Virus record (IMG/VR): IMGVR_UViG_3300021406_000010
Location: 1-64,000 of that record
Origin: a virus
Reading direction: 5' to 3' (one strand)
DNA length: 64,000 nt
A program made the translations under genes and the position numbers. Every line of letters begins with the position of its first letter. The stretch's first letter is position 1. Of this stretch, positions 1 to 62,856 are shown in pieces. Below the pieces are notes generated by a model. It did no database searches. It was not told the origin of the DNA and was given only the letters and a program-made list of their open reading frames with translations.

Positions 1-3000
1 CGGTAGCACTCGTGTCCGGTAGGGTGCTCGCCGGTCCCGCCACAGCAGCTGCACCCGCCGCAGTGCGCGTCGGCTGAGCCATCCAGGCCGCAGGCCAGGC
101 ATGACCCGTCCGTGGCTTCAGCGAAATCATGGGGGGCGTCCTGGGCGTCGCCCATCGTGCCGTCAATCCCGGCCTGCTGCCGCAACGCCTCGCCGGCCTC
201 CTGCGGGTCCTCCCCGGTGGTCGAGGGCAGCGCGGCCTCCGGCTCCTCGTGCAGCTCCGCGAGCGCCCCGCCCAGCTCGGGAATGCGCGGGTCCGACGGC
301 ACCGGCGTCCCGGAGCAGGTGACCGGCCAGGTGAGCGACTCCTCCATCCGGATGCCCTGCGGGTCGCGAGGGGTGATGGACGTCGAGGGGCCTCCGGCGA
401 GCACCTGGCCGCCATAGGGGAACGGCTCCTGCCACTCCTGGCCGCTCATGTCGTCGAGGGCGGCGACGTTGGACAGCGGCATCTGGAACACGCTGTCGTC
501 GATCTGGCCCCAGTTGTCCGGGTCGGGGGCGGCCAGCGGGCCGTAGGAGCCGGGGTCGGTGTCCTTGTCGGGCGGCGAGGTGGCCCCGTACGGCTTCTGC
601 GGCGGGTGCCTGCTGACGTTCTCGCTTCCCCACGGGGCGTTCGCCTGGTCAGCGGTAACCCTGCGGCCGTAGGCGTGCATGCCCTCCTCGTCGAAGGCCT
701 GCGCGCGGGACCATGCTCCCGGGCGGGGGGAGGCCGGCTGCCAGTGCGGGGAGCTGGCGTCGGGCGGCGGCGGGTTCGACTTGTCCAGCCCGTGGTTGAC
801 GTCCATGTCCCACCGGACGTCATGCGGGTTGAAGTACCGGTTCCACCCGGCGGAGGGGTGGACATTGTGGATGTTCAGGTGCGGGGCCGCGTCCTTGCCG
901 GCGAATCCCGCCCACCACCGGGCGCCCTGCCGGGTGCGCACCCCGTGGTTGACCCAGGCGTCATTGGATGCCGCGTGCCTGGTCAGCTCTCCCATCATCC
1001 TGGTGGCGACCCCCTGGCCGCGCGCCGCCCTGGCGGTGTGCAGCATGGAGACCCTGATGGCCCGCGCGTCGTCGGACTGCTGGAAGTGCAGGCTGCCCAG
1101 GGCGCGGCCGTCCTCGCCGGTGGCGATCACCGCGTGGGTCGGGGTGCTCATGGCGGGATTCGCGCGGGCGAGCCTGGCGCGCTCCTCGTGGGCGAGCTCG
1201 CTGACGCGCACGCTGTAGTCCCCGACTGGCCGCCGGGACCAGAGCCAGGCGGTGACCTGGCCGTCGCCGGGGAAATGGCAGTCCCCGGGGTGGCTGAAGG
1301 CGCATAGCCCGCCCTCGCCGTCGTCCCCCTCGTCGTCCTGGCCCGGGATGCCGGACGTCTTGCTGATGCTGGCGGACGGGGCCAGCCACTCCTGGCGCCA
1401 CCGGCCCGCGTGGGGCTCGCCCTCGTACGGCGGCCAGGATTTCACTACCACCTGGTGCGGAGCCTCAGTCGGCCCGGGGGTGACCTGCTGGCCGAACATG
1501 CCCCGCGACTGGGCCTCCAGCCGCACCGCGCACACGTGGGAGCACATCCGGCCCGCGTACCTCGTGCTTCCCTTCCGCTCGTTCTGGTGGTAGCTGGCCC
1601 ACGGGCAGCCGCAAATCCAGGCCATCACGTTGCGGTGGCCTGGGTAGGACTGGAAGCCGGACTCGTAGGTGGCGTGGTCGCCGCGCACCTCGCCGATCAC
1701 CGTGCCCGATGCCACGTGGGTGATCCGCACCGCGCCCTCGGCGCGCAGCCGCTTGGCCTTGTCCATCACGTCCCGCCAGGTGGCGGTCAGGTGGAACCGC
1801 ACCTCGGGATGGGCGGCGGCCACCTTGCGGCTGCGCCTGCCGTCCTGCGATCCCTGTGTGAAGGCCGGGCCGCCCTCGGTGACGGGGGCCTGCGCCATCG
1901 GCCAGGCGCGCGGCTCGCCCGCCTCGAGTGAGTCGCCCTCGTCGTCGTGCTCGTGCTGCCCTAGCCCGGCCACCGCGTTGTCGACCTGGTCCCGGAAGCC
2001 GCTGACCTCCTCCGGCGGGGCGTCCGGCCCCGGCACCCGGCCGGTGCCGTCCTTGGAGGAGGCGCGCAGCTGCTGGCCGTGCATCTCGTCCCACGGCCCC
2101 TCCTGCGACGGCACTTCCGCCACGTACGCGGGAACCTCCGGGGCGGCCTTCCCGGCGGCGGCGGCCAGCAGCCTCGCGATGGCCCGGTGGTGGCCGTCCC
2201 CGATCACCTTGCGGCCGTCGGGCAGCGCGACGACCAGCGCCGGCTTGCCGTTGCCCTCCTCCATGAACGCGGTGACGCGGCGGGGCTGGGAGCTGGCCGT
2301 CCAGTGCGCGCGGTCGCCCCAGTCGATCTCGTGCAGCGGCACCATCTGCGGGCCGGTGACGGCGGCGGCGCGGATCCACTCCAGCGCGGCGGGCGGGTAG
2401 TCGTCGGCCAGCTGGGCGACCAGCGCCTCCCGGGCGCCGCGCGAGGACAGGGTGTGGTGCACCCAGCGGTGCCTGCCCTGCTGGTGGTCCAGCAGCCCGG
2501 CGACGTCGGTCCACTCGCCGTTGGCGTATTCCTCCCGGGTGTCCTCCGGCTTCCCGGTCCGGTCCGGCCGGGTGGACAGCAGGTCGGCGGCCGGCATCTC
2601 GGGCCACCGCTCCTCCGGGTCCTCGGCCGCCTGCGCCTGGAACCCGGGCGGATCGCGGTCCTCGTCGGTGAAGCCCGGGGACGGCACGAAGTCCCCCCAG
2701 GTCATGGTTGGCACGTCGTGCCAGGAGTGCAGGGTACCGCGCTCGGCGGGCGTCCACGGCACGCGGGCGGTGAACGGGCCGATCGGCAGGCCGGGACCGC
2801 TGCCGGACGAGATGCCCTCCGGGTACATGCCGACGGTGGCCCCGTTGGCGTCCTCCTTGTCCTCCCCGTGCACCGGCTGGCTCCACCTGGGGTCGCCCTC
2901 CCCCTCGGTGGACCTCTCGTCGTAGGAGTCCGGCCCGGCCGCGCGGGGCACGGTGCCGTGCTGCGGGGCGTCGCCGTGGCCGTCCACGTGGGTGCCGTTG

Positions 3001-3593
3001 ATGTCGGTGGCATGGTGCCGCATTCCCATGAGGGCGGCGGCCTCCTCGATCTGCGCGAGCCGGGCCATCGCCGGCGGCATCTCCCACGGCGGCGGCGGGG
3101 CCTCCTCCTGCGGGCCGATGTTCTCGTGCACCCACTCCTGCTGGCCCGGCTCGGCCCAGTACACTCCGGCATCGCCCTCGCCGCCGTTATAGTTCTCGTC
3201 GCGGAGGTCCTCCGGCCGTCCCCAGGTGCTGTCGGCGGTCCTGCGGGACCCGATCACGGTGATGATCCCTCCCGGGTCGGGCCGGTCATGCAGGATGGTG
3301 CCCATCTCCGGGTACCAGTAAGAGGCCATTCGCGTGTCCAGCGAGTCATCTACCTCGTCCAGCGCGGCCGTCACCCCGGAGGGCAGCAGGCCCGGCGGGA
3401 CGCCCGCGTAGGGGGAGCGCACGGCGTCGGGCAGCGGGCGCAGCTGGCTGGCGGTGTAGGCGCCCTGGCCCATGCCGCCGTCGAGGACCACCTGGTACTC
3501 CTCGACGCCCGGCGCGAATGATCCCGACACGAACAGGACGCGGCCGGGGATGTTGTCGATCGTCATCACCCGCTGTCCGACCCTGAAGTCCAT
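1..3593 (-). CDS. Large multi-domain virion-associated protein (ParB-like + SWIM zinc finger + GNAT), runs off the window edge
   Basis: Translated by hand from ATG 3593 (SD GGAGG): MDFRVGQRVMTID...; VIGDGHHRA (ParB-like), CGCPW...CSH (SWIM), ARGQGVATRMM (GNAT motif A); no stop seen before position 1; absent from ORF track. Confidence 0.8.
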   Translation of the reverse strand, partial: MDFRVGQRVMTIDNIPGRVLFVSGSFAPGVEEYQVVLDGGMGQGAYTASQLRPLPDAVRSPYAGVPPGLLPSGVTAALDEVDDSLDTRMASYWYPEMGTILHDRPDPGGIITVIGSRRTADSTWGRPEDLRDENYNGGEGDAGVYWAEPGQQEWVHENIGPQEEAPPPPWEMPPAMARLAQIEEAAALMGMRHHATDINGTHVDGHGDAPQHGTVPRAAGPDSYDERSTEGEGDPRWSQPVHGEDKEDANGATVGMYPEGISSGSGPGLPIGPFTARVPWTPAERGTLHSWHDVPTMTWGDFVPSPGFTDEDRDPPGFQAQAAEDPEERWPEMPAADLLSTRPDRTGKPEDTREEYANGEWTDVAGLLDHQQGRHRWVHHTLSSRGAREALVAQLADDYPPAALEWIRAAAVTGPQMVPLHEIDWGDRAHWTASSQPRRVTAFMEEGNGKPALVVALPDGRKVIGDGHHRAIARLLAAAAGKAAPEVPAYVAEVPSQEGPWDEMHGQQLRASSKDGTGRVPGPDAPPEEVSGFRDQVDNAVAGLGQHEHDDEGDSLEAGEPRAWPMAQAPVTEGGPAFTQGSQDGRRSRKVAAAHPEVRFHLTATWRDVMDKAKRLRAEGAVRITHVASGTVIGEVRGDHATYESGFQSYPGHRNVMAWICGCPWASYHQNERKGSTRYAGRMCSHVCAVRLEAQSRGMFGQQVTPGPTEAPHQVVVKSWPPYEGEPHAGRWRQEWLAPSASISKTSGIPGQDDEGDDGEGGLCAFSHPGDCHFPGDGQVTAWLWSRRPVGDYSVRVSELAHEERARLARANPAMSTPTHAVIATGEDGRALGSLHFQQSDDARAIRVSMLHTARAARGQGVATRMMGELTRHAASNDAWVNHGVRTRQGARWWAGFAGKDAAPHLNIHNVHPSAGWNRYFNPHDVRWDMDVNHGLDKSNPPPPDASSPHWQPASPRPGAWSRAQAFDEEGMHAYGRRVTADQANAPWGSENVSRHPPQKPYGATSPPDKDTDPGSYGPLAAPDPDNWGQIDDSVFQMPLSNVAALDDMSGQEWQEPFPYGGQVLAGGPSTSITPRDPQGIRMEESLTWPVTCSGTPVPSDPRIPELGGALAELHEEPEAALPSTTGEDPQEAGEALRQQAGIDGTMGDAQDAPHDFAEATDGSCLACGLDGSADAHCGGCSCCGGTGEHPTGHECY

Positions 3594-3607
3594 GCCGCCT
3601 CCTCTCC

Positions 3608-3615
3608 CCTTCCGC
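3608..3615 (-). promoter_or_regulatory. CGGAAGG-N5-GGAGG start-associated motif
   Basis: gcggaaggggagaggagg upstream of ATG 3593. Confidence 0.45.
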
Positions 3616-3631
3616 GCAGGGCTGGCGGATA

Positions 3632-3651
3632 GCAGCTTTCCTTGCTATCGT
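3632..3651 (+). promoter_or_regulatory. RCAR-N6-YTGY operator-like site with -10 TATCGT; leaderless start
   Basis: gcagctttccttgc-tatcgt, ATG 3658 follows 6 nt after the -10. Confidence 0.7.
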
Positions 3652-3657
3652 GCAAGC

Positions 3658-4056
3658 ATGACAAGCATGGCTGGGACTTTCCCGGTGACTAGCCTCATCA
3701 CGATCGCCGCCATCTTCCTGCTGGCCGTCGCCGGGGCCATGGCGGGCCTGGTGATGGCGGGCAGCCGGTCCGTAACCAAGTGGCCGCCGAAGCCCCCGGC
3801 GCGGCCGGAGGACCGGCTGCCCGCCATCCGGGGGCCACAGGAGCTGCAGGCACTGCCCGCGCCCCGCCCGGTCCTCGCGCTGCCGGCCGCCCCGGCCGGG
3901 TGCTCGCTAGCATCCTGCGGCGGCCCCCGCCAGGAGTGGCTGCTGACCGTGATGGTCGGCGGCGTCGCCCGGCGGGACCTCGGCTTCTGCTCGTGGGAGT
4001 GCATGGAGAAGTGGAAGCGGGCCGACATGGCCAGCCGCGCGCTGGCCGCCAGGTAA
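3658..4056 (+). CDS. Hypothetical membrane protein with C-terminal Cys motif (FCSWEC)
   Basis: N-terminal hydrophobic helix; leaderless ATG after promoter motif. Confidence 0.65.
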   Translation: MTSMAGTFPVTSLITIAAIFLLAVAGAMAGLVMAGSRSVTKWPPKPPARPEDRLPAIRGPQELQALPAPRPVLALPAAPAGCSLASCGGPRQEWLLTVMVGGVARRDLGFCSWECMEKWKRADMASRALAAR

Positions 4057-4067
4057 GGGGAAAGGCA

Positions 4068-4355
4068 GTGCCAGCGATCGACATGCCAGTCAGCCCTGAC
4101 GGCAGCCGCCTGCTCATCGGTGGCAACGACAACCACGGCAAGCCGCGCCAGGAGTTCGCCGACCAGCTCGCCGCAGCGGACGAGGGCCAGTACCTCGAGC
4201 TGGCCGAGCGCTATGTCTGGCTGTCCGCGTACGCGGCCAATAACCGGCGAAGCGACTACCACTGGAAGTGCGACGCGGCTTACGCGGAGGCGAAGAGGCG
4301 CGGCAAGCCAGGCCTGTACGACAGGGCGCACCGCCATGCGTCCGGTTCCGAGTGA
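4068..4355 (+). CDS. Hypothetical protein
   Basis: GTG start with purine-rich SD; YVWLSAYAANN..SDYHWKCDA core. Confidence 0.6.
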   Translation: MPAIDMPVSPDGSRLLIGGNDNHGKPRQEFADQLAAADEGQYLELAERYVWLSAYAANNRRSDYHWKCDAAYAEAKRRGKPGLYDRAHRHASGSE

Positions 4356-4600
4356 CAGTGCTCAGCTGCGAGTTCCACGGCCCGCTCCGGCACCGCCCGG
4401 AGCGGGCCGCGTGGGTGTGCCCCGGGTGGGACGGCGAGGGCTGCAGGAACGGACTCCTCGGCACCGATGGCATCTCTGAGGAGGCATACGCCAGGGTGGA
4501 CGCGGGCCTGACGTACTGGCCAGGGGCTGACGTGGACGGGGTGCCCTGGCGCGAGGCGCGCGAGAGGCTCAGGGCTACCCGGTCGCCCCGGGGAACGTAG
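4352..4600 (+). CDS. Hypothetical Cys/His-containing protein
   Basis: GTGA overlap with upstream stop. Confidence 0.5.
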   Translation: MTVLSCEFHGPLRHRPERAAWVCPGWDGEGCRNGLLGTDGISEEAYARVDAGLTYWPGADVDGVPWREARERLRATRSPRGT

Positions 4601-7343
4601 CCGCCTGGCCCCGCCGCCACGCCTCGTAGGCCTGGTCGGCCGCCTGCTGGGCGCGGTAGGCGGCACCGTACAGGAACCCGGCCGTCCCGTCGGTGCCGCC
4701 CGCCTGGCGCATCATGCGGTACTCGGCCCAGGCCTTGCCCGCTGCCTCCGAGGCTGCCGTGAAGGCCGTCCACAGGCTGGCCGCGCTCACCACCGTCATG
4801 CCGGACGCCACGGCGGCGAGGCTCCCCGGGGCGGCCATCGACGCGGCGCCCCGGACGGTGGCCAGCGGCGCGGCGCCGATGGCGCCTAGGCCTGACAGCA
4901 CTGGCCTCGCGCTGAGCGCGGATGAGGACGCCAGCGCGCCGGATCCGGACATGGCGGCGGCTTCCGGCAGCCGGGGCGCGGCGCCCATCGTCCCGGCTCC
5001 CGACAGGACGGCGGTCCCCGCTGGCGGCGCGGCGGACAGCGTCCCGGAACCGGACAGGGACGCCGCGATGCCCTCGGCCGGCGCGGAGGACAGGGACCCT
5101 GCCCCGGAAAGCGCGGCGGCGGCCATGGAGCCCTGGAGGGCGCTGAGCGTCCCGGACCCCGACAGGACGGCCGGGAGGGCCTCGCTGCCGGCGAGGGACC
5201 CGGACCCGGACAGGGGGACGGCGAGGCCCTCGGCGACGGCGAGGGACCCGGATCCCGCCATCGCGCTGCCGCCGGGCAGCACCGGGGCGGCACCGAGCGT
5301 CCCGGACCCCGACAGGGACGCGGTCCCCGGGAGCTGCGGGAGCGCCGTCACGGACCCTGAACCCGACATGGAGGGAGCGGCCTGCTGGCCAGGGGCGGCG
5401 CCGAGCGCCCCGGAGCCGTCCAGGGCGGCTGCCCCGCTGAGCTGGGAGGACGCCGCCAGTGCCCCGGAGCCGGACATCGCGGCCGATGGCGCCTGCTGCG
5501 GGGACGCGCTGAGGGACCCGTTCCCGTCCAGGGGGGCGGCGGCCCCCAGGGCGGGGGAGGCCGCCAGGGATCCGGCCCCGTCCAGGGGGGCGGCAGCTGC
5601 CTGGACGGGGGCCATCCCGGGGTCCAGCCGCAGCGACGCCAGGTCAAGCATGCTCTCCAGCAGCGGGTGCGGCACCTGCTGCGGCAGCATGGTCGTCGCC
5701 TGCGCGTAGCTGGAGGGGATGATCGCGCTCAGCGCCGCCTGGACCCAGTCGGGCTGCCACGCATGCGACTCGGACGTGTTGGCGAAGGTGTACGTGTGCG
5801 GGATCCCGGCGCTGGTAAGCGCCGAGTCGTAAGCCGGGACGTCGGCCCCGAAGGCGGGGCCGAGGCCGATCCAGATCCTGTTGACGCCGTACTGCCCGGT
5901 CGCCGCCCGGACGGGCAGCTGCGGCGGCAGCTCCCAGGTCGACGTGAAGTTGCCGCTCGTGCCGTAGAACAGCGCCGGCGAGCCGCCGACGGCACCCCCG
6001 TTCGTGGGGTCCGTGCCGTCGTAATCGGTCATCATCGCGGGAAAATCCCAGGATGCCGCCGCCGCGAAGGCGTCCTGATGCCGGAACAGCAGTCCCTGGG
6101 CGCCCAGCCCGGAGCGGCTGAACCCGATCAGGTAGACCTTCTCGCTGCCGGTGACGGCGAGGTTCGCCTGGATCCACGCCACCACCAGCATCGTGTACCG
6201 CTCATAGCTGATCGTGGGATCCAGCGGGTTGTCCGCGTACCACGGGCCGTTGAAGCTAACGCCGGGGTACCCCGGCTGGATGCAGGTCAGGTTGAAGGCG
6301 TTGTGCGCCCCCAGTCCCTGGGCCACGCCGATGCTGTCGCCGAATGTCGTGTCCTGGTTCGCGTCGACCGGCAGCATGACGAGGAAGGCGTGCGGGTAGC
6401 TCGCTGACGGCGCGGCCGGGGCCAGCACCCGCATGGTCGTCGAGCCGCCGGCCCACGGGCTCGTCACGTTCCACGTGTCGATGCCGCCGGACGACGACCC
6501 GTACGAAACGGTCAGGTCCGCGACGCCCTGGGCCTGCCAGTCGGCCCGCTGCCACGCCTCCTCGAGCAGCATGGCGGTGAAGTGGGGGTGCGGCGGGATC
6601 AGCGGCGGCGCCACCGGGGCGGACACAACGGCAGGGCCGCCCGCCGCGACGGTGGCAAGCTCTATCGTCCACTCGGTCCACCAGTTGTCGGTGGCGTTGG
6701 ACGTGGTGAACGACCCGCCGCCGATGGCCGCCCCTACAGCGCCCGCGCTGCCCGCCGAGTCGGCGCTGGCGTTGCAGACGCCCGAGTTGCCGTTGGACAG
6801 CTGCCGCTGCGTCATCCCGGAGGGGACCCCGGTGATGCTGCCGCCCGAGTCCGGGGTGATCGGACCGAGCTGGACGACCCACGACCCGGCCCGCAGCGCC
6901 GTCCCTGACGGGGTGGTGCCGACGGCGGTCTCCGCGCCGAACGCCGGGGTGATGGACTGCGCGATCGGGTCGGCGACCCAGAAGCCGCTGTAGGAGTCAT
7001 GGGTGGCGGTCCACCAGAAGCCATCGGTGGAGCCGATGCCGCCGGTCCAGGAGATGGTGAACGTGCTGTTCGGGTCAGACGCGGTGGCGACCCGCCACCA
7101 GGCCGTGGCGAAGGTCCCGGCGGTGCCGTTCTCGGCGGCCACCAGGGGGCCTATCGGCGTCCACGCGCCGCCGCCCGATGTCGGCGTGCTCGTGGCCGGC
7201 CCGGACAACGGGAACGAGAACGTGTTGATCCCGACGATCATCACGTCGCCGACGGCCACGCCCGCCGGGATGGTGAACGTGAACGGGGTGGTGTGGGCGC
7301 TCTCCCCGAGGGTCGCCGTGGTGCCCGTGTTGTGCGTCGCCAT
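4575..7343 (-). CDS. Putative virion structural/fibre protein with alpha/beta-hydrolase (esterase) domain and SGSG repeats
   Basis: 922 aa; beta-rich T/G N-terminus, IGFSRSGLGA nucleophile elbow, SHAW His motif, many L/M-S-G-S-G-x-L repeats. Confidence 0.7.
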   Translation of the reverse strand: MATHNTGTTATLGESAHTTPFTFTIPAGVAVGDVMIVGINTFSFPLSGPATSTPTSGGGAWTPIGPLVAAENGTAGTFATAWWRVATASDPNSTFTISWTGGIGSTDGFWWTATHDSYSGFWVADPIAQSITPAFGAETAVGTTPSGTALRAGSWVVQLGPITPDSGGSITGVPSGMTQRQLSNGNSGVCNASADSAGSAGAVGAAIGGGSFTTSNATDNWWTEWTIELATVAAGGPAVVSAPVAPPLIPPHPHFTAMLLEEAWQRADWQAQGVADLTVSYGSSSGGIDTWNVTSPWAGGSTTMRVLAPAAPSASYPHAFLVMLPVDANQDTTFGDSIGVAQGLGAHNAFNLTCIQPGYPGVSFNGPWYADNPLDPTISYERYTMLVVAWIQANLAVTGSEKVYLIGFSRSGLGAQGLLFRHQDAFAAAASWDFPAMMTDYDGTDPTNGGAVGGSPALFYGTSGNFTSTWELPPQLPVRAATGQYGVNRIWIGLGPAFGADVPAYDSALTSAGIPHTYTFANTSESHAWQPDWVQAALSAIIPSSYAQATTMLPQQVPHPLLESMLDLASLRLDPGMAPVQAAAAPLDGAGSLAASPALGAAAPLDGNGSLSASPQQAPSAAMSGSGALAASSQLSGAAALDGSGALGAAPGQQAAPSMSGSGSVTALPQLPGTASLSGSGTLGAAPVLPGGSAMAGSGSLAVAEGLAVPLSGSGSLAGSEALPAVLSGSGTLSALQGSMAAAALSGAGSLSSAPAEGIAASLSGSGTLSAAPPAGTAVLSGAGTMGAAPRLPEAAAMSGSGALASSSALSARPVLSGLGAIGAAPLATVRGAASMAAPGSLAAVASGMTVVSAASLWTAFTAASEAAGKAWAEYRMMRQAGGTDGTAGFLYGAAYRAQQAADQAYEAWRRGQAATFPGATG

Positions 7344-7366
7344 GGGCGCCCCCTCCTGCTAGGAGG

Positions 7367-7915
7367 TCAGCTGGCTGCCCACGCCATCAGGTTGTACGTG
7401 GTGATGCTGTTGCTCGCCGAGCTGGTGCCCCACGCGGCGCCGACGCCGATGGCGCGGTTGGCGGTGGTGTCCACGGTCACCGTCCGCAGCGCCTGCGTGG
7501 CCGGCATCGGGATGGGGGCGGCCATCGCGGTCAGGGACGTCCCCAGGTGCAGGACGCCCTGGCCCTTGAAGGAGCCGGAAGCGCCGATCGAGCGCAGCCG
7601 GCCCCGCCACCAGGCCTCCCACGGCCACGCCGCCGCGCCCGATCCGGTCGTGGTGGCGGTCGTCTGCGCCAGGATGCTGGTCGGGGCCGCTCCCGCCGAG
7701 CCGTTGAACCAGAAGCCGAGCGCCAGGGTCGGCGTGCCGGTCGTGGAGAACTCGCCGTGTGCGTACAGGTACAGCTCCAGCCCGACGTCCATCATCTGCT
7801 GCGGGAGGACCAGCTGCGGGGTTGGCGAGATGTCCTGGAATGTCGTGAATGTCGTGAATGCGCTGCCGTCCGCGACGTTCAGCGGGGTCAGCGGGCCGAC
7901 GATGGGCAGTCTCAC
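7367..7915 (-). CDS. Putative virion structural protein
   Basis: 182 aa, T/A/G-rich, in operon after portal. Confidence 0.6.
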   Translation of the reverse strand: MRLPIVGPLTPLNVADGSAFTTFTTFQDISPTPQLVLPQQMMDVGLELYLYAHGEFSTTGTPTLALGFWFNGSAGAAPTSILAQTTATTTGSGAAAWPWEAWWRGRLRSIGASGSFKGQGVLHLGTSLTAMAAPIPMPATQALRTVTVDTTANRAIGVGAAWGTSSASNSITTYNLMAWAAS

Positions 7916-7928
7916 GTGCTGGCTCCCC

Positions 7929-8766: not shown

Positions 8767-8816
8767 CGGCGACTCCCGTCGTCAGGGGGACTGCGTCACC
8801 CCTTCCGGGCCGCTGG

Positions 8817-11108: not shown

Positions 11109-11124
11109 GCGGTTGCCTCCCGCA

Positions 11125-11132
11125 CCTTCCGG
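11125..11132 (-). promoter_or_regulatory. CCGGAAGG-N4-GGAGG start-associated motif
   Basis: ccccggaaggtgcgggagg before portal ATG. Confidence 0.55.
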
Positions 11133-11146
11133 GGGTTGCAATCAAT

Positions 11147-11166
11147 GCGGGATTTATTGCTATACT
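11147..11166 (+). promoter_or_regulatory. Operator-like site variant with -10 TATACT; leaderless start
   Basis: gcgggatttattgc-tatact, ATG 11173 6 nt later. Confidence 0.55.
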
Positions 11167-11172
11167 TCAGTC

Positions 11173-12374: not shown

Positions 12375-12412
12375 CGCCCCTCCTCTCGTGCTTCCCTGGC
12401 GGGAGCCAGATG

Positions 12413-12426: not shown

Positions 12427-12449
12427 AATGATCATAGCGGCAGGGCGCC

Positions 12450-12914: not shown

Positions 12915-12923
12915 CGGCGTCCC

Positions 12924-54713: not shown

Positions 54714-57700
54714 GACCCTTCCGGGCCGTCGCCCGCCGCCGCGATCACCCGCAGCGCCAGGTCATGCACCGCCTCGGCGACCTCCCGGGCGACCGGGGCG
54801 TCCTCCAGCCTGACGGCCACCGCCAGCAGCCGCTCCCCGGTGAACCGCAGGAACCCCGGGATGGCGGCGAGCAGCTCCCGTGCCTCGTCCGCAGCAGTGC
54901 CGGCGGTGATGGCGGCCGGGACCACGTCGGCGACGGGGGAGATGACCATGCCCTGCGAGGCGGACTCCTCGTTGTCGCCGACCCGGCGGATGACGCGCAG
55001 CGGATGCGCGGACTTCCACTCATCGCCGTTGTAGCCGCCCTTCACCTCGCCGGTCGGCGCCACCTCGTAGACGTGGCCGCCAGCGTCCCGGGCGTAGTCC
55101 CGCGCCCCGGTCAGGTCGGTGGTGAAGTGGTTGAACTGCGAGCGCGGTCCCTCGTCGCCCCACGCGTTGGTCGGATGGCCGACAGTGACCTGGCTGCCCT
55201 CGCGCAGCCGCTTCGACCGGCTGCCATGGTAGAAGGGGCCGGTGACCTGCTGCTCCTTGCTGACGTAACCGCCCTCCGGGCCGTGCGTCTGGTACCGCCA
55301 GGTGAACGACGGGGGACCAGGTGGCTCCAGGGCGGCCTCGTGCCGGGAACCGCCGTCGTCCTCGTCCGGCTCGTGCAGGTGCCGGTACTCCTCCGGGACC
55401 GGCATCTCCCGCTTGACGTCGAACCCGGCGCGGCTGCGCACGTCATCGTCGTTGTTGCCGCGCGGCCACCCGTCCTTCAGGTAGAACGGGTCCTTCTCCA
55501 GGTCATCGGCCTTCGGCGTCACCTGGTAGACGCGCGGCGGACGGCCGAGCGTCAGGCTGGCCTTCTCCGCGTAGCCCCAGGCGTGCGCCAGGCCCGCCGT
55601 GGCGTACCCGTGCGTGCCCTCGTGGTCCATCCCGAAAGCGCGGCCACGGCCGGGAGTGACCTCCTGCAGGCCCTCCTCGGTGGTGCCATGGTAGTAGGGG
55701 CCCCTCGCGGGCAGCCCCTGCCGGTGGCGCTCGACGTTCTCGTCCAGGCGCGCCTGCCTGCCTGCAGCCGCCTCCGGGCTGACGTCGAAGGCGTGCGAGC
55801 AGTTAGCGCAGGTGGCCGTGCTCCCGCGACTGCCCGGCTGCCGCTCGCGGCTCCCGCACTGAGGGCACCTCTCCTGCGTCATCAGGGCCAGCTCGCGCTC
55901 GAACTCCGGGGATCGCCTGACCGGCTGGTGCCCCTCCCCGGGGAAGTGATGGACGGGGGCCTTGTGGCTGTCTGAGCAGTTCACGCAGAAGGGGGCCTCA
56001 CCGGGAACGCGCTCCTCGGCCCCGGACGCCTCATCGCGGTGGCGCGCCCACAGGAACCCGTCCAGGTCGCGCTCTGGCGCGATCCTGGTGTGCGGGCCGC
56101 CTTTGGTGGCGGCCGTCACCTCATGCCCCTCCCCGAAGTGCGCCTCCAGCTCCCGGGCCGCCGTGTGCTGCCGTGGCTCGTCCGCGTCAGCGGCATGCGG
56201 GAACCCCGGGTAGGAGGTCCGCTTCCGCTCGCCGCTCGGGTAGTTCAGCGGGGCGGGCCGGTCCTGCGCCTCCGCGCCGTGGAACGGCCCCCTGCGCCCG
56301 TCGGCGAACGGCTCGTCCTCGTGCGGGGAGTAGGCGACGTAGGCGCGGATGCTGGGCCAGTGAGCCGCGTTGGCGCCGTTCGCCCGGTGGTGCCCGTCGG
56401 CCACCTGGAACACGCCGTGGCGGTGCACCAGGACCACCGGGGGAACCTTGTCGCGCTGCCGGTGGTCCCTGAACCCGTCGGCGGCGCGCTTCACGCGGGG
56501 GTCCCACGGCTCGGCCTTCATGTAGTCGATGCGGCTGGTGTCCACCGTGCGCGGGCGGAACCGGATCTCTGACCCCGGGTAGCCGGTGAGCGGGTGCAGT
56601 TCACCGGTGGACTCGGCATAGGGATGTCCTGGCCGGTCGTGGTACAGCTCGGCAGCAGCATCGCCGATGTCCCAGCCGTATCCGTTGCCCGTGTCCGGCC
56701 CGAATCCCTCAGGCGCCCCGTGGACTTCAGGGTCCCCGTACAGGTGCGGGTGCCGCCTCCCGATCTCCTCCCAGGTGAGACCGTCATCGTCTCGGCCAGC
56801 CTCCAGGACGGCCTGGCGGTGCTGCGGGGTGCCCCCCAGCTCGGTCAGCGGCCTGCGGCAGTAGTGGCAGCGCAGCTCCGCCGACGGGTCGCGGACCTCG
56901 TACCGGCCCGAAGACCGGCCAGCAGGCTCCCCGAAGGGGCCGTTCAGCTGGGGCATGTCCCCGCCGGGGAAGATGCCGTGCTCGTCGTGCTCCGGCTCGC
57001 CCTCGGCGAACGTGTGGTGCACCCCGATGCCATGGGCGCGGTCCTCAGCGTGCGACTGCTCGCAGGTGAGGTTGCAGTACCTTCCCTGGTCGTACTCGCC
57101 CCGGTCCCAGCGCTCGTCCCGGGCGCGGTCCCGGGCCAGGGCCGCCTCCACCTCCGGGGAGTGGCCGTCCTCCGGCCAGTGACGCACCTCGGCGCCCTCG
57201 CGGCGGGAGCAGTGCAGGCACTGCGGCACCTCATCTGGGTCGCGCTCGGTGATACCGTCGTCCTCACCCCTGCGCATGGCCCAGGCGAAGCCATGCTCAT
57301 CCTGCTCAGGCGGCATCCGCCGGTAGGACTGATGGTCCTCGTCATCCATGTCGTCCCAGGGCTCGCCATCGTCGTCCTCGCCGCTCGCGGCAGCCTCCAG
57401 GGCGGCAGTGCGCCCGTCGTCATTGCCCTCCAGGTAGCGCATGGCCTCGTCGTGCCCCGGCCCGGCGAACATCCGGTCGATATCGCGGCCGGCATCCCGC
57501 CCGGCCCTCTCGCGGCCCGCCAGCTCGTGGTGCTCGGCCAGCGCCGCGTGCCAGTCGTCGGAAGTGCCCCAGCGGTAGTGGTGCCGGGTGCTATCCGGCG
57601 TGAACGGCTGGTCGCCCTCCACGTGCGGCGGCGTTCCCGGGTCGAGTTCCTTGTGCCGCCAGGCGTCCTCGGTGACCTCCGTCGGGCCGGAGCGCGAGGT

Positions 57701-58558
57701 GACCTTCCCGTGCAGGATGTCCGCCATCGATGACGGGCACTCGGCGCTGTCCGTGCACTCCGCCTGGGTGTGGGGACGCGGCCAGGTCAGCCGGTCGTTG
57801 CAGTACTGGCACTCCTCGCCCCGCACCGGGTCGCCGTACCGGCGCATCCGGCCCCAGGAGGCCCCCTCCATGTCGGAGACGTCCTCCCGGGCCTCGTGCT
57901 CCCACCAGTTCTTGCACGACGGGCACGAGTAGCCTCCCTCGCCCGACCAGGCGTAGCGCGCGTCGTCCGGGCCGCTGACCGCCTCCATCCGGGCGACGGC
58001 CCGCTCGTGCTCGCCGGTGCGGGCGTGCTCCGCCTCGATCCTCGGCCGCAGGTCATCCCAGTACGTCTTGCCCTCGCCGCCAGCGGCCTCGTCATTTGCG
58101 GCAGCAGCTTCCAGGGCGGCCGTGTGCCCGCGCAGGTCGGGAACCTCGCGGATCACCTCGGCAGGATCCTGGGTCGCCCAGTCATGCCCTTGCGCGTCGC
58201 TGCGGTGGCCGATCCAGCCGACCGGCCGTACCTCGTAGACGTGGCGCCCGTACCCCCTTGCCCCCTTGCCGTGCCCGCCGGGCCCCCAGTCGTCCTCGGG
58301 GTGCTCCGTCATGTAGACGTGCTCCAGCGGCTCGTCGGTGAAGTTGCCGGGGTGCCCTGGCTCGACGTGGCCGCCGGGCGCGATCTCGTGCCTGGTCCCG
58401 TGGTAGAGCGGTCGCGGGGCGTCCAGCGGGTGCCGGTGGTCCTCCAGGCCAGAGTCGCTGGGTAGTAGCGGTCCTGCGCGCCTTCCGGCCCCCGGGCGTG
58501 GATGACGCCGTAGGTGCCGTGGTTGTAGCTCCACCCGGCCGGGGACGGGGGCGTCCAT
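54689..58558 (-). CDS. Giant polyvalent protein 2: 3 Arr-like ART, ParB-like, several zinc fingers; 5' end probably continuous with upstream ORF
   Basis: LYHGT, YYHGT, FYHGS domains; VADGHHRA; CxxC pairs. Confidence 0.8.
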   Translation of the reverse strand: MDAPVPGRVELQPRHLRRHPRPGAGRRAGPLLPSDSGLEDHRHPLDAPRPLYHGTRHEIAPGGHVEPGHPGNFTDEPLEHVYMTEHPEDDWGPGGHGKGARGYGRHVYEVRPVGWIGHRSDAQGHDWATQDPAEVIREVPDLRGHTAALEAAAANDEAAGGEGKTYWDDLRPRIEAEHARTGEHERAVARMEAVSGPDDARYAWSGEGGYSCPSCKNWWEHEAREDVSDMEGASWGRMRRYGDPVRGEECQYCNDRLTWPRPHTQAECTDSAECPSSMADILHGKVTSRSGPTEVTEDAWRHKELDPGTPPHVEGDQPFTPDSTRHHYRWGTSDDWHAALAEHHELAGRERAGRDAGRDIDRMFAGPGHDEAMRYLEGNDDGRTAALEAAASGEDDDGEPWDDMDDEDHQSYRRMPPEQDEHGFAWAMRRGEDDGITERDPDEVPQCLHCSRREGAEVRHWPEDGHSPEVEAALARDRARDERWDRGEYDQGRYCNLTCEQSHAEDRAHGIGVHHTFAEGEPEHDEHGIFPGGDMPQLNGPFGEPAGRSSGRYEVRDPSAELRCHYCRRPLTELGGTPQHRQAVLEAGRDDDGLTWEEIGRRHPHLYGDPEVHGAPEGFGPDTGNGYGWDIGDAAAELYHDRPGHPYAESTGELHPLTGYPGSEIRFRPRTVDTSRIDYMKAEPWDPRVKRAADGFRDHRQRDKVPPVVLVHRHGVFQVADGHHRANGANAAHWPSIRAYVAYSPHEDEPFADGRRGPFHGAEAQDRPAPLNYPSGERKRTSYPGFPHAADADEPRQHTAARELEAHFGEGHEVTAATKGGPHTRIAPERDLDGFLWARHRDEASGAEERVPGEAPFCVNCSDSHKAPVHHFPGEGHQPVRRSPEFERELALMTQERCPQCGSRERQPGSRGSTATCANCSHAFDVSPEAAAGRQARLDENVERHRQGLPARGPYYHGTTEEGLQEVTPGRGRAFGMDHEGTHGYATAGLAHAWGYAEKASLTLGRPPRVYQVTPKADDLEKDPFYLKDGWPRGNNDDDVRSRAGFDVKREMPVPEEYRHLHEPDEDDGGSRHEAALEPPGPPSFTWRYQTHGPEGGYVSKEQQVTGPFYHGSRSKRLREGSQVTVGHPTNAWGDEGPRSQFNHFTTDLTGARDYARDAGGHVYEVAPTGEVKGGYNGDEWKSAHPLRVIRRVGDNEESASQGMVISPVADVVPAAITAGTAADEARELLAAIPGFLRFTGERLLAVAVRLEDAPVAREVAEAVHDLALRVIAAAGDGPEGSWEPGPKA

Positions 58559-61500
58559 TCCGGTTCGCCGTTCTCCTCAAAGTGGGCGACCACCGGCGGG
58601 AGGTGCAGGCTGCTCTCGCTCGGCGTCAGCGGCCGGAACGGCCTGCTGGCCTCCGGGTCGTGCAGCACGCGCTCGAACTCCCCGTTCCTCCTGGGAGTGC
58701 CGCCGAAGAAGTCGGTGTGCTCCGAGAGCTGGAAGACGTCCGGCCACTGCCGCTCGCCGGGGAGGCCGCGCTGGGTTTCGTGCTGGTGCGTCGAGTTGGT
58801 GCGCTGGTGCTCACCGGCGTGCCACCGCTCCTGGTTCTTCGGGGACATGTGCAGGTCGGAGGTGCGGGAGTCCATCCCGTGCATGTGGTGCATGTGGTCG
58901 CGCAGCTCGCCCTCCCTGGGCGGCTCCACGTAGGGCAGCGCCGCGCGCCTGGCGGCCTCCGCCGCCGCCTGGCTCCTCTCGTACGCGTCGTCCTCATCCT
59001 CGGTGTCGCGGCCTTCATCATCGTCATCCTCGTGGCCACCCTGGATGTCGTCGTCCCAATCGTCCTCGTCCATGGCAGTGGCTTCCAGGACAGCCTCGTG
59101 GTGGCGGCCCTCCTCGTCGAACAACGGGTCCATGTGCCGCTGGCCGCCGGGCCACTGGCGCTGCGCCTCGTCCTCGGGCAGGCACTCGGCGCCGGTGTGC
59201 CGCTGGGTGACGTCCACCTGGTCCTCACCGAAGGCGATGGCACACCGGTTGGCATCCTTCTCCGAGCTGAGGCCATCACACGGCGACTTCTCGAAGGCGT
59301 TCCCGTACACGATCCCGTCATGGCCCTGAGACCGCAGGTGGGCGATATGCCGCTGGGCTATCTCGTACTTCTCCGGGTGGGCGTTCAGCCAGCCGGTCGC
59401 GTACGGATGCACCTGCCGGTGCTGGCGCATGTAGTGCTCGCTCGGCTCGTCCTGGCGGCGCATCCGCTCGCCGTCGTCGGCGTAGTCGTAGGCCACCCCG
59501 ACGTCAGACCCTTCGTCGTGGTACTCCTTCAGCTCCGGGTCCAGGTGCCGCTCGATGTGGTTGCCGGCCTTCCACTCCCGCTCGTATGCCTCCTGGTCCA
59601 TGTCGTGCTCGGAGGCGTAATGCTTCGGGCTCCTCATGAGGAGCCGGGCGTGGATGACGTTCTCCTGCGGGCCGCCCTGCGGGAAGCCGCCGGATGGGTG
59701 GTCGCCGTGGGCGAACTGCTCGGCCACCTTGTGGCAGGCGGTGAAGTGGTGGCCCAGCAGCGTGTTCCAGTGCGACGTGTCGTCGGGGTCGTCCTCGTAC
59801 TCCAGGTCGCTGTACGGCCGGTCGCCGCCGAAGTCCCCGAACCGGTGCGGGGAGCCGTGGAACCACTCCAGTCCCCGGGTGTGCGGGTTCGGGTACGGGG
59901 CGCGGCCCGGTGCGGGATCATGGAGATCATGGCGCTCGCCCTCCGAGGCGAGCGAGGATCGCAACGGGTACGCGGCTGCCGCTGCGGTCACCGGCCTTGT
60001 CCTTCCCGTGCTGGGGCGCGCCGCGACGGCCTCGCGCCGGGCGGGGGCCGAGGGAGGCCCCTCCGGCGGGTCGCGGCGCTCGCGCCCCTTCAGCCCGCGC
60101 GCCCACTTCTTGCCCTGTTCCGTCTGGTCCTTCGAGTGCCTCGCCTTCGGGGACATCTCCTGCGACCAATCCCACATCGCGGTGGCCAGGCCCCGGGCCT
60201 GGTGGTCGCGCCCGTCGCCGAGCAGGGACCCCCTGGCGGTGTCGTCCTCGTCGCCGGCCACGTCCATGTGGTGGACCCAGCCGGTGGCGCCGAACCAGTT
60301 CAGGCGGCCGACGACACGGCCCTCGGGGGTGTGCGCCTCGATGAAGTGGCGGGGCTTACGCTCCCCCATGTCCTCCGTGCGGTAGCGCAGCGTGTAGTAC
60401 CCGAAGGGCCGCTCATCGCCGTCCCGCTGGCGCGAGGCGCGCTTAGGCGACAGGGGCGGCTCCTCGTGCGGTGCCACGATCGCGGGCGGCTCGTCGCGGG
60501 CCGCCTCCCTCGGCGGGACGCGCATCTTGTGGCTGCAGTACTCGTGCATGTGCAGGGCCTCGCGCGGCTCGCCCCAGTAGCCCCACTCCTGCAGGTCGTC
60601 GCCGTTCCCGTTGCGGACGTCCTGCGCCCGGACGGTGGTGCCCCAGATGTGGTACCTGCCAGGGTGGTCAGCGGGCAGGCTGCCCGACGGCGGGTCGTTC
60701 ACCTCGGCGGCAGTCTGCTCGGCGTACTTCCGGTTCAGGGCCACCCAGTCGCCTGGGTTGAACTGGCCCCGCTTGGCGTTGCGGGACTCCGGGTTGAGCG
60801 CCGGGGCGGCCCGCCAGATGCGGACCTTCGCGCCGGGCTTGCCGCGCGCCCTGCGGATCATGCGCAGGTGGTCATGGCCGAACTGGCCCTCGCCGAAGTC
60901 ATACCACTCAGGGTGGTCGTAGACGTCGGCGGGGAAAGTGTCGCCCTGCGTCAGGTCGTGCAGCGGCGCAGCCTCGTCGTTCGGGCGGTGGCTGACGCCG
61001 TAGTCCTCCGGGGTGGCCGCCGCCTCGAAGTGGGCCACCACCTCCGCCACCGGGGCGGCGGGCGGCTCGGCCGCCGCCTGGTGCCGCTGCTTCCACCGCC
61101 GGATGCGCGGGTCCTCCTGCTCCAGGTGCTCGCGCGTGCCGCCCGCCTCGCCATGCCAGGCGTTCAGGGCCTCCTCCACGTGCCGGGGACCGACGTGGGC
61201 GGCCAGCTCCCCGGTCTTGGGGTCGGTGTCCAGCCCGGTGACGTCGTGGGCGTACTCCCCGGTGGCCTGGTGGTGCAGCTGCAGGTACATGCCGCCGAAG
61301 CTGCGGCCCGTCCAGCCGGACGGCCTCCCAGACGGAAGGCGGTGCTCCAGTTCGTAGTACGGCTCGCCGTCGTCCCTGAACCTGATCTTGCCGCGCCCGC
61401 CCTCGTAGCGGGTCATCAGCTCCTGGCCGTTGCGCAGCGCCCGGTCGGACTGGCGGGACTCCTCGGTGCCGCCGGGGTCCTCGATGTCCTGGACCTTCCT

Positions 61501-62856
61501 GAACAGAGCATCACCGAACGCCTTCCCCGCCTCCTGGGACTGGCGCTTGTGGTCGATGTAGTCCCGGCTGGCCTCGGCCTGGTGCTGGGTCTCGAAGCCC
61601 CGGGCGTTGCCGGTCATCGCGTGGCGGCCCGCGTTGTCGACGACGTGGAAGCGATTGGTCTGCGGGTGGCGGACCACCTCGTACGGGCCGTGCCACTCCT
61701 CGCTAGGGCTGTAGCCCTGCGGCTCGTGCACGCGCGGCTCCGGCCGGGCGGCCAGCTCCAGGTCATAAGCGCTGACCCGGGAGTGCGGGAACTGCGGCGG
61801 GTTGCGGCGCAGGTGCTCCCGGTAGGCCTCGTGCAGCCCGACGGCGTCGACCTCTCCGGGATGCGTGCGGCGGACCTCGTCCGGCTCGCGACGGGTGGTC
61901 AGCCGGTACCAGTCCTGCATGGCGCTGCTGTTGCCGGAGAACATGCCACGGCTGCCGTCGTAGGCGCCCTCGTTCGGGTGGGTGGACCTGCCCTCGCGGT
62001 CCACGACGTGGTAGGTGGCGTTGCGCTCCCGCTCGCTGTAGTCGCGGCCCTTCTCGCGCTCCGGGTCCCGGGTCACGTAGTAGGGGCCGTGGTCGGGGGC
62101 GGTCAGGTGCGGGTGCTCCTCCAGCCTGCGGTTACCCGGGTCGCGCTGGCCATCGCGCATCCGGGCCAGGAAGTGCCCCGCCACCGGGGACTCGCCCGTG
62201 GGGGTGGCGAACACGTCCTCGCTCTCGGGAACATCGGCGGCTGCCTCGAAGTGGCCGAGCAGGTCATCGCCCGCGCTGGCCTTGCGGAGTTGCCGCTGAT
62301 GCGCTTCCATGCGCTCATAGTCCTCACGCGTGAAGTCCCAGTCCGGCCCCCATCCGTGCGGGCTGCCCAGGTAATGCCTGCCCTCCTGGTAATCCCCATG
62401 GTCGCCGCTCCACTCCTCGTGCAGCCTGACGACGCGCAACGGATGATCAGTAATCCGCGATCCACCGTGTCGCAGCTGGCCCCGCCTGGTGCCCCCAAGG
62501 TTCTCCGGGTCATGCATGTGCGGGCCTGTCGGCTCTACCTCATAGACTCGCGCTCGCCCGGACTCCCCGTACCGGTCAGCTCCTGGCGGCTCGTGGGCAC
62601 CGTCAGCGAACCAGCGAGCCTGGCCGGGGTTGACCGACATGTAGAGGGGCTTGCCTGTCACTGACTGCCACTTCGGCAGCCTGCCCACGTGCTCGTAGTT
62701 CCGGTGCGCGGCGGCTTCCTCGCCAGTCAGCAGGTCCCCGGGATGCAGTTCGTACCGCGTGCCGTGAAAGAAGGGGCCGCGCTCCTCGTCGAGGAAGCCT
62801 GCCCGCCGCTCATCGCCCATGCCCTCAACGATAGCAAGAAAACCTGCATTAGTCAT
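58309..62856 (-). CDS. Giant polyvalent protein 1: Arr-like ART, two further ART-like domains, GNAT
   Basis: FFHGT...VYEVEPTG; IWRA...PGDWV...EWGY; HQARGLATAM; WFHGS...HFT...GHDGIVY; starts at ATG 62856 (SD) or 62820 (leaderless). Confidence 0.8.
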   Translation of the reverse strand: MTNAGFLAIVEGMGDERRAGFLDEERGPFFHGTRYELHPGDLLTGEEAAAHRNYEHVGRLPKWQSVTGKPLYMSVNPGQARWFADGAHEPPGADRYGESGRARVYEVEPTGPHMHDPENLGGTRRGQLRHGGSRITDHPLRVVRLHEEWSGDHGDYQEGRHYLGSPHGWGPDWDFTREDYERMEAHQRQLRKASAGDDLLGHFEAAADVPESEDVFATPTGESPVAGHFLARMRDGQRDPGNRRLEEHPHLTAPDHGPYYVTRDPEREKGRDYSERERNATYHVVDREGRSTHPNEGAYDGSRGMFSGNSSAMQDWYRLTTRREPDEVRRTHPGEVDAVGLHEAYREHLRRNPPQFPHSRVSAYDLELAARPEPRVHEPQGYSPSEEWHGPYEVVRHPQTNRFHVVDNAGRHAMTGNARGFETQHQAEASRDYIDHKRQSQEAGKAFGDALFRKVQDIEDPGGTEESRQSDRALRNGQELMTRYEGGRGKIRFRDDGEPYYELEHRLPSGRPSGWTGRSFGGMYLQLHHQATGEYAHDVTGLDTDPKTGELAAHVGPRHVEEALNAWHGEAGGTREHLEQEDPRIRRWKQRHQAAAEPPAAPVAEVVAHFEAAATPEDYGVSHRPNDEAAPLHDLTQGDTFPADVYDHPEWYDFGEGQFGHDHLRMIRRARGKPGAKVRIWRAAPALNPESRNAKRGQFNPGDWVALNRKYAEQTAAEVNDPPSGSLPADHPGRYHIWGTTVRAQDVRNGNGDDLQEWGYWGEPREALHMHEYCSHKMRVPPREAARDEPPAIVAPHEEPPLSPKRASRQRDGDERPFGYYTLRYRTEDMGERKPRHFIEAHTPEGRVVGRLNWFGATGWVHHMDVAGDEDDTARGSLLGDGRDHQARGLATAMWDWSQEMSPKARHSKDQTEQGKKWARGLKGRERRDPPEGPPSAPARREAVAARPSTGRTRPVTAAAAAYPLRSSLASEGERHDLHDPAPGRAPYPNPHTRGLEWFHGSPHRFGDFGGDRPYSDLEYEDDPDDTSHWNTLLGHHFTACHKVAEQFAHGDHPSGGFPQGGPQENVIHARLLMRSPKHYASEHDMDQEAYEREWKAGNHIERHLDPELKEYHDEGSDVGVAYDYADDGERMRRQDEPSEHYMRQHRQVHPYATGWLNAHPEKYEIAQRHIAHLRSQGHDGIVYGNAFEKSPCDGLSSEKDANRCAIAFGEDQVDVTQRHTGAECLPEDEAQRQWPGGQRHMDPLFDEEGRHHEAVLEATAMDEDDWDDDIQGGHEDDDDEGRDTEDEDDAYERSQAAAEAARRAALPYVEPPREGELRDHMHHMHGMDSRTSDLHMSPKNQERWHAGEHQRTNSTHQHETQRGLPGERQWPDVFQLSEHTDFFGGTPRRNGEFERVLHDPEASRPFRPLTPSESSLHLPPVVAHFEENGEPEWTPPSPAGWSYNHGTYGVIHARGPEGAQDRYYPATLAWRTTGTRWTPRDRSTTGPGTRSRPAATSSQGTPATSPTSRWSTST
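62828..62847 (-). promoter_or_regulatory. Operator-like site with -10 TATCGT; leaderless start at 62820
   Basis: gcaggttttcttgc-tatcgt-tgagggc-ATG. Confidence 0.65.

Follow-up and report, generated by a model that had tools for sequence, protein, structure and literature searches.

Short recognition motifs are known from several head proteases: T4 gp21 cuts at L/I-x-E, and phiKZ gp175 and SPN3US gp245 cut at A-x-E (PMC10052503). The herpesvirus assemblin precursor (UL26 type) consists of an N-terminal protease, an R site, a linker, a scaffold and an M site, with sites of the form Ala|Ser/Thr (PMC4498786). Processing has also been predicted for polyvalent proteins, in which several unrelated catalytic domains share one polypeptide, either by zincin-like metallopeptidases (MPTases) or by assemblin-like peptidases (Iyer, Burroughs, Anand, de Souza and Aravind, 2017; PMC5512222); in that study assemblin-like domains were reported only at C-termini, and the word "linker" is absent from the text. 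Here we examine a four-residue word, [KRH]-T-A-[AS], in three giant open reading frames (ORF1, ORF2 and ORF3) of the virus record IMGVR_UViG_3300021406_000010. The analysed stretch (the window) is the first 64 kb of this 166,488-bp record, which has a G+C content of 71%. A preliminary description of the window had proposed that words of this kind form a head-protease cleavage code, by which the giants are cut into separate packaged enzymes. We find that the word is a selected peptide signal, located at module junctions and present family-wide, and from its sequence context we judge the chances evenly balanced that it is the recognition site of the phage's own predicted assemblin-fold prohead serine protease.

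The locus resembles the T4 gp21 and phiKZ systems in its probable assemblin-fold head protease, in putative ADP-ribosyltransferase cargo (compare T4 Alt), and in what may be one short motif common to the protease, to capsid or scaffold components and to internal or ejected proteins. The residues differ, since the motif here is [KRH]-T-A-[AS]; a Glu at the cut site as in T4 and phiKZ was rejected because none is conserved among 78 instances, and if the sites are cut, the specificity therefore differs from that of T4 and phiKZ. The analogy drawn earlier with gp21 and gp175 thus holds for the logic of a shared motif but not for its residues. In addition, a single N-terminal propeptide is removed in those systems, whereas the sites described here, presumed to be cut, separate up to a dozen enzymes. 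Points common to the herpesvirus precursor and the phage protein are the same protease fold at the N-terminus, an x-x-Ala-Ser/Ala word immediately behind it, another such word ahead of the C-terminal assembly region, and small residues where P1 and P1' are presumed to lie. Unlike that precursor, the phage protein has hundreds to ∼1700 residues of cargo and zinc-ribbon modules between protease and tail, its position 1 is basic and its position 2 is Thr, and candidates for two of its three catalytic residues are a His and a Ser.

ORF1, ORF2 and ORF3 fit the polyvalent-protein concept of Iyer et al. (2017) in textbook fashion, and they occur in the phage and packaging context expected of such proteins, being encoded by a phage genome in a conserved gene order. 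As in the published examples, ADP-ribosyltransferase, ParB-like, MPTase, GNAT, NUDIX and RNA-repair domains are fused, and packaging genes are adjacent; unlike in those examples, the protease here lies at the N-terminus, and modules are exchanged between the protease fusion and giants that have genes of their own. The three giants are arranged as follows.

58309-62871, minus strand: ORF1, 1520 amino acids (aa) as called, forming the N-terminal portion of a giant polyvalent protein of A type; Arr at residues 33-150 (Pfam) and ParB-C-like region at residues 538-771 (PHROGs)
54689-58558, minus strand: ORF2, 1289 aa as called, in relatives the continuation of the ORF1 gene; Arr domains at residues 50-138, 954-1051 and 1108-1192, ParB-like domain at residues 582-778
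48810-54713, minus strand: ORF3, 1967 aa, B-type giant polyvalent protein; modules 1-6 are Arr1 (54363-54665), ParB-like1, nucleotidyltransferase-like (NTase-like, 53175-53969), ParB-like2, zincin/MPTase1 (52182-52733) and Arr2; modules 7-12 are zinc-ribbon/unknown, Arr3, NUDIX (50247-50714), unknown, MPTase2 (49302-49901) and LigT/2H (48825-49295)

In ORF3, Pfam picked out a NUDIX domain, a 2H/LigT phosphoesterase and three rifampin-ADP-ribosyltransferase domains of the Arr type, with Arr also found in ORF1 and ORF2, and a hidden Markov model built from the Arr copies detected seven such domains across the three ORFs. ORF3 also contains two paralogous HExxH domains with weak SprT-like similarity, and at least 12 modules were distinguished in it by breakpoint mapping.

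All of the tetrapeptide words listed in the preliminary description are present at the places given for them. The words of ORF1 and ORF2 are as follows.

ORF1, minus strand: linker words HQAA 61072-61083, REAA 60499-60510, VTAA 59980-59991 and HEAV 59089-59100
ORF1, minus strand: VVAHFE-type words at 62245-62256, 61024-61035 and 58576-58587
ORF2, minus strand: linker words HTAA 58115-58126, RTAA 57401-57412, RQAV 56807-56818, HTAA 56156-56167, VTAA 56108-56119 and HEAA 55331-55342

To quantify enrichment, we distinguished a broad motif, [KRHV][TQE]A[AS], from a strict motif, [KRH]TA[AS], and derived expectations from residue shuffles. The broad motif occurred 8 times in ORF3 (1.23 expected), 6 times in ORF2 (0.76 expected) and 4 times in ORF1 (0.85 expected). 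Counts of the strict motif were distributed over the genome as follows.

Giants ORF1-3: observed 10, expected 0.63
Minus-strand block 41630-48008: observed 6, expected 0.41
Protease fusion protein: observed 2, expected 0.17
Plus-strand block 17000-41525: observed 0, expected 0.88
Portal-side block 3-17007: observed 0, expected 0.42
Remaining 25,000 aa: observed 3, expected 3.99

The comparison with plus-strand early proteins, controlled for Ala, therefore came out as had been anticipated, and so did the presence of motif words in 41630-45761. The giants contain less Ala than the rest of the genome (10.7% versus 13.9%), so Ala content cannot cause the enrichment. In a search that made no use of the motif, TAA was the most over-represented tripeptide of ORF1-3 (14 versus 2.45 expected), ranking above the Arr signature words. 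Two of the proposed carriers did not hold up: the R-V-T-A-S close to the portal protein's C-terminus is not conserved, relatives having only an Ala-rich stretch there, and the protein at 1-3593 has a single broad match against 0.7 expected, which is not significant, and lacks the strict form.

The residue classes proposed earlier were recovered by freeing each position in turn in a 51-kaa (thousand amino acid) pool of family cargo-type proteins. Preferences at position 1 were 22-fold for K, 12-fold for R, 9-fold for H, 6-fold for F and 5-fold for V; at position 2, 13-fold for T, 3-fold for Q and 2.5-fold for E; at position 3, 13-fold for A; and at position 4, 13.5-fold for A and 11-fold for S. 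The Q and E versions are ∼2-fold enriched genome-wide (36 versus 18.6) and are thus partly generic. Among 78 non-redundant instances, strong constraint was confined to the four core residues, with weak flanking trends for A or S three residues before the motif and for A, L or R at +1. The acidic stretches said to follow the word amount to a modest trend and not more, D or E being found two residues after the motif in 32% versus 15%; at this position, the most favourable of the flanks, Glu stands in 10 of the 78. The choice of codons at the motif is about as variable as in the background (CAC/CGC/AGG/AAG; ACC/ACG/ACT; GCC/GCG/GCA), and since synonymous codons vary, selection acts on the peptide and not on the DNA.

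Module junctions were defined, again without use of the motif, as peaks of BLAST breakpoints between ORF3 and 42 metagenomic homologues with shuffled architectures, which gave ∼14 junctions. As had been claimed for domain boundaries, six of the eight broad ORF3 sites lie within 4 residues of a breakpoint peak (null expectation 1.86, p = 0.0025), and V-T-[SG]-x variants stand at four more peaks, so that the ORF3 junctions carry a mark in ∼10 of 14 cases. A coarser test, which used fewer relatives and covered all three ORFs, placed 9 of 18 sites at breakpoints (4.0 expected, p = 0.008). With looser forms allowed at position 1 (V or F) and position 2 (Q, E or V), the word marks nearly every module junction. 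The ORF3 sites are listed here.

53961-53972, minus strand: RTAA, junction of ParB-like1 and NTase-like; KTAA at the homologous junction of relative L007
53163-53174, minus strand: KTAA, junction of NTase-like and ParB-like2
52734-52745, minus strand: KTAA, junction of ParB-like2 and MPTase1
52170-52181, minus strand: HTAA, junction of MPTase1 and Arr2
51723-51734, minus strand: RTAS, ∼40 aa past Arr2, nearest breakpoint peak 22 aa away
50739-51086, minus strand: Arr3 between two variants, VTSA at 51075-51086 and VTSM at 50739-50750
49899-49910, minus strand: RTAS, junction of the unknown module and MPTase2
49290-49301, minus strand: VTAA, junction of MPTase2 and LigT

There are exceptions in both directions: an RTAA at ORF3 residue 1863 sits inside the LigT domain, and some ORF3 junctions, such as the end of the NUDIX module, have no word.

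Three further cargo-type proteins with motif words are encoded downstream of the giants.

41630-46292, minus strand: three cargo-type proteins of 642, 641 and 326 aa
45552-45563, minus strand: HTAA
44769-44780, minus strand: HTAS
44448-44459, minus strand: KTAA
44179-44190, minus strand: HTAA
43351-43362, minus strand: RTAS

The 642-aa and 641-aa proteins correspond to a single ORF of 1114-1215 aa in relatives L007 and L008, and in this phage a stop separates them exactly at a T-A-S junction (window 44340-44540). A frameshift between them was rejected, the arrangement being a normal stop followed by a restart, and their apparent 170-nt overlap is only an upstream-extended open frame. Similarly, ORF3 module 249-513 (NTase-like, with RTAA at residue 248 and KTAA at residue 514) exists as a separate gene of 328 aa in Streptomyces phages, LuckySocke among them. 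Together, the gene boundary at the T-A-S junction and the stand-alone NTase-like gene imply that the modules work apart.

The signal recurs across the phage family. In the 42 homologues (81,598 aa) there were 142 strict sites versus 9.5 expected, and 38 of them had at least one; giants downstream of the counterpart of the neighbouring 706-aa gene were also enriched in five further contigs of IMG/VR relatives. At homologous junctions of L007 and L008 the word is retained though the neighbouring modules differ. Before the NTase-like module it is R/K-T-A-A across this phage and these relatives, and before NUDIX it is V-T-S-M here, K-T-A-S in L007 and R-V-A-S in L008. In Mycobacterium phage Stubby (65% G+C), nine strict sites were found in ∼43,000 aa (5.6 expected), of which four were in gp89 and gp90 together, versus 0.43 expected there. 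The Bixzunavirus genomes (Bxz1/Stubby, gp89-gp90-gp91-major capsid protein) share the gene order, with portal, then a 1271-aa protein, the protease fusion, a small protein and the capsid protein. The proteases share 41% identity, gp89 and gp90 contain R-T-A-A words, and behind the protease domain stands K-T-A-G. Unlike the present genome, these genomes have no giant Arr-rich ORFs after the terminase; their sites are far fewer, and the proteins carry the annotation hypothetical. Stubby gp76 (L157:28152-29861), a 569-aa hypothetical protein encoded a few kb upstream of the portal region, also has two strict sites versus 0.04 expected and may, on this sequence criterion, be another Bixzunavirus head protein.

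A second junction word, [VL][VL]xHF[EDGA], typically V-V-A-H-F-E, was found 34 times in A-type giants and protease fusions; it was not found in the other 35,000 aa of the genome and is absent from B-type (ORF3-like) giants. It often follows directly after T-A-A, and it also forms the very N-terminus of the L007 and L008 A-type giants. One possibility is that this word could serve as an N-terminal tag exposed after cutting.

The protein most likely to read the motif is encoded outside the window.

Genome 158775-162770 (L006:8775-12770), minus strand: protease fusion protein, 1331 aa, with the protease at its N-terminus
Genome 156390-157418: capsid protein; upstream of it a 215-aa protein and then the 1331-aa protease fusion

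Residues 32-215 of the fusion match the PHROGs head-maturation-protease family phrog_18299 (E 1e-20). Neither Pfam nor a sequence search of the PDB gave a match to the protease domain, so that its identification comes from PHROGs and from fold comparison. An AlphaFold2 model built on 26 orthologues (predicted local distance difference test score, pLDDT, 77) matched T4 gp21 (5jbl) best, with a Z score of 10.2 and a root-mean-square deviation of 2.5 over 127 residues. Next came the proteases of varicella-zoster virus (VZV), pseudorabies virus (PRV), herpes simplex virus 1 (HSV-1), human cytomegalovirus (HCMV), Kaposi's sarcoma-associated herpesvirus (KSHV) and Epstein-Barr virus (EBV) at Z 7-8.7, and unrelated MCE domains matched at Z 5.8 or less. 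A His and a Ser (in T-S-M-G) are invariant in the 26 sequences. The model thus supports the view that the phage encodes an assemblin-fold prohead protease. Behind the protease the protein continues with zinc ribbons, DUF7178, an acidic run of ∼120 aa and a tail that is conserved, and orthologues range from 709 to 1985 aa, their length being set by differing inserts of cargo modules.

When the whole fusion protein was aligned across 33 orthologues, most had A-K-A-A-[SA] and then [KR]-T-A-[AS] ∼10-20 residues past the protease domain. Ahead of the conserved C-terminal region, which by its position may be scaffold-like, come a long acidic run and then (R)-K-T-A-[AS]-A-L, and the spacing between the post-protease word and the pre-tail word varies from ∼500 to 1700 residues. 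The capsid protein was compared in 80 relatives; it has a leader of variable length and sequence, then a conserved G-L-R-x-R-V-A-[S/A/K], then K-S-D-D-Y. The word can be summarised as R-[VF]-A-[SAK], and in Stubby the region reads G-R-F-A-K-A-S-D-D-Y. Its constant part is a basic residue, V or F, and Ala; what comes behind this Ala is variable and may be shorter by one residue, and a putative cut therefore fits after that Ala better than one residue later. The capsid and cargo words are linked by L008, in which R-V-A-S is the positional equivalent of the L007 K-T-A-S at the NUDIX junction. The capsid protein's PDB match (6wkk) was uninformative on the mature N-terminus.

Searching the relatives' protease fusions with ORF1-3 by BLAST revealed shared cargo. 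ORF1 residues 33-613 and 597-782 are fused in frame behind the protease in L046, and residues 260-635 lie behind it in L064, L048, L051 and L061. The ORF2 ParB-like module is found there in L071, L072 and L074, and the ORF3 NUDIX module in L048, L050, L074 and L084. A 43-aa module of the 641-aa protein likewise occurs directly behind the protease domain in relatives. The fused modules include Arr, ParB-like and NUDIX, and several are again flanked by the motif. Since a protein led by the protease must sit inside the procapsid, this provides the best argument that the fused modules are head cargo, and the fusion of the same modules to the prohead protease is an indirect hint that the giants may be delivered into the host with the DNA.

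From these comparisons we infer cleavage itself, the scissile bond and the packaging of the giants, and we propose the following course of events. The giants would enter the procapsid together with the protease-cargo-scaffold fusion. The protease would free itself at the site directly past its own domain, cut the scaffold-like tail, trim the capsid-protein leader at R-V-A|S, and sever the cargo at every junction, the bond probably being that from the first Ala to the Ala or Ser behind it. The head would then end up with separate enzymes (ADP-ribosyltransferases, ParB-like nucleases, NUDIX, 2H phosphoesterase, nucleotidyltransferase and others), which would be injected along with the DNA. More broadly, a family of large soil actinophages may possess a "punctuation" code of four residues that its head protease reads, with a herpesvirus-like Ala|Ser/Ala specificity, so as to turn interchangeable multi-enzyme polyproteins into separate anti-host enzymes delivered by the capsid, with modules moving freely between stand-alone giants and the protease-scaffold fusion; we advance this fuller proposition tentatively, rating its chances a little below even. 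Should it be true, it would be a phage counterpart of the polyprotein processing of eukaryotic viruses, and it would explain the deployment of polyvalent proteins that combine a dozen incompatible activities. It would also supply a rule, applicable from sequence alone, for predicting packaged or injected domains in hundreds of uncultured actinophages and in cultured Bixzunavirus mycobacteriophages, define a new specificity class of assemblin-fold proteases, and offer a portable linker for loading foreign proteins into capsids.

The cleavage reading of the preliminary description therefore gains comparative support from the family-wide signal, the assemblin-fold protease, the post-protease motif and the shared cargo, and loses its extension to the portal and the 1-3593 protein. 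Several points weigh against it. T4 gp21, the closest structural match, cuts after Glu, and no Glu is conserved near the motif. Neither the portal nor the portal-side polyvalent protein contains the strict motif, this phage has a degenerate site (K-A-A-A) past its protease domain, and the capsid-protein word has V or F, not T, at position 2. A capsid-targeting signal was not identified for the giants, 33 of the 42 ORF3-type homologues carry a zincin peptidase of their own, which is an alternative enzyme, and a literature search for N-terminal or virion mass-spectrometry data on the phage or Bxz1-like relatives found none, papers on Felix O1 and rV5 having no bearing on the matter.

An alternative that we regard as unlikely, while taking it seriously, is that the motif stays uncut and is a short linear linker element, such as a helix start, a hinge, or a docking or packaging signal for scaffold, portal or chaperone, that is kept through shuffling. 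Four residues with weak flank preferences (A or L at +1, acidic at +2) could start a helix, the second junction word, present also at the A-type N-terminus, looks more like a tag than a scissile site, and cleavage is itself something that we infer. A structural linker, on the other hand, rarely needs K/R/H-T-A-A/S with 9- to 22-fold preferences at every position, the same word stands at the classic self-processing points, past the protease and before the scaffold tail, and the modules work apart, as the T-A-S gene boundary and the separate NTase-like gene indicate.

Less probable still is cutting of the motif, in cis or in trans and before packaging or after injection, by the zincin-like MPTase (HExxH) of the ORF3-type giants. 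MPTase autoprocessing of polyvalent proteins has been proposed (PMC5512222), and ORF3 itself has its two HExxH domains. No such MPTase was seen in the first relatives examined, and in the wider set at least one HExxH domain was found in the 33 homologues mentioned above; the ends of these domains are usually marked by the motif or by R-E-A-A. However, the motif is just as frequent without an MPTase in cis, as in ORF1 and ORF2, the 41630-46292 proteins and the protease fusions, and 1-8 strict sites are present even so in six of the nine MPTase-less homologues. The ORF3 MPTase domain had no counterpart among the matches in Stubby, which is a weak negative, yet that phage has the motif in gp89 and gp90. 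Self-release by the prohead protease also explains a word directly past its own domain better than zincin cutting does.

Finally, it is very hard to credit that the word is a functionless by-product of Ala-rich, high-G+C composition, a repeated DNA element or a recombination scar: the genome is indeed G+C-rich and loose Q/E forms are enriched throughout it, but composition-preserving shuffles and the lower Ala content of the giants reject a compositional artefact, freely varying codons with no constant nucleotide word reject a DNA repeat or microhomology scar, and the enrichment repeats in the 42 homologues and in the mycobacteriophage of lower G+C.

The setting of the giants is that of a large tailed phage. 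The portal is related to those of Rhodococcus phage E3, Gordonia phages and cluster C (Bixzunavirus) mycobacteriophages, and this kinship identifies the source as a large actinomycete myovirus. A close relative of its capsid protein is encoded on at least 280 IMG/VR stretches, many of them on contigs of 150-166 kb. The giants adjoin a 706-aa gene (63190-65310, minus strand), for which a Pfam search gave no match; ORF1, ORF2 and ORF3 follow it downstream, in the same order as in relatives, and further minus-strand genes extend from the giants down to 41630. A plus-strand block of small genes occupies ∼17000-41525, and beyond it lies a minus-strand block with the portal.

8817-11141, minus strand: portal protein, with the R-V-T-A-S near its C-terminus that was not counted in the system
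3-3593, minus strand: start of a polyvalent head-region protein with ParB-like, SWIM-like and GNAT domains, ∼1480 aa, wrapping to genome position 165495

The latter is the homologue of Bixzunavirus gp89, and its 3-3593 part lacks the strict motif. Window positions 1-141 and genome positions 166348-166488 repeat ∼47 codons of one ORF, which would reflect either a repeat at the termini or, in a circularly permuted genome, an overlap left by assembly. In the region 4575-8400 the coding strand is ambiguous, third-position G+C being ∼0.95 on both strands; a minus-strand ORF of 922 aa there is atypical in its G+C at the first two codon positions, and no family match was obtained on either strand except for a Gp80-like fibre match at 7929-8387 (minus strand).

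All relatives examined have a single gene in place of ORF1 and ORF2. At 58440-58560 (minus strand) the codon-position G+C signal shifts from the ORF1 frame to the ORF2 frame near 58465-58480, 160 nt before the ORF1 stop, and downstream of the switch the ORF2 frame has no start codon. The frames differ by -1, and a C-CCA-G run is located at ∼58459-58463; the switch could be a programmed -1 slip, a true frameshift mutation or a sequencing error. A TTA-led ribosome hop was rejected, there being no TTA at this place. The helical ∼90-aa C-terminus of ORF2 (residues 1200-1289; 54692-54961, minus strand) is kept in all relatives despite differing upstream modules and is a candidate capsid-targeting or docking domain.

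Among the cargo-type genes, 46752-47501 (minus strand) encodes a protein of the uracil-DNA glycosylase superfamily (Pfam UDG, E 2e-26). In addition, positions 540-624 of phrog_15528, annotated in PHROGs as a portal protein, match ORF3 residues 1379-1467 in the NUDIX module, and this family may therefore contain a NUDIX-like region.

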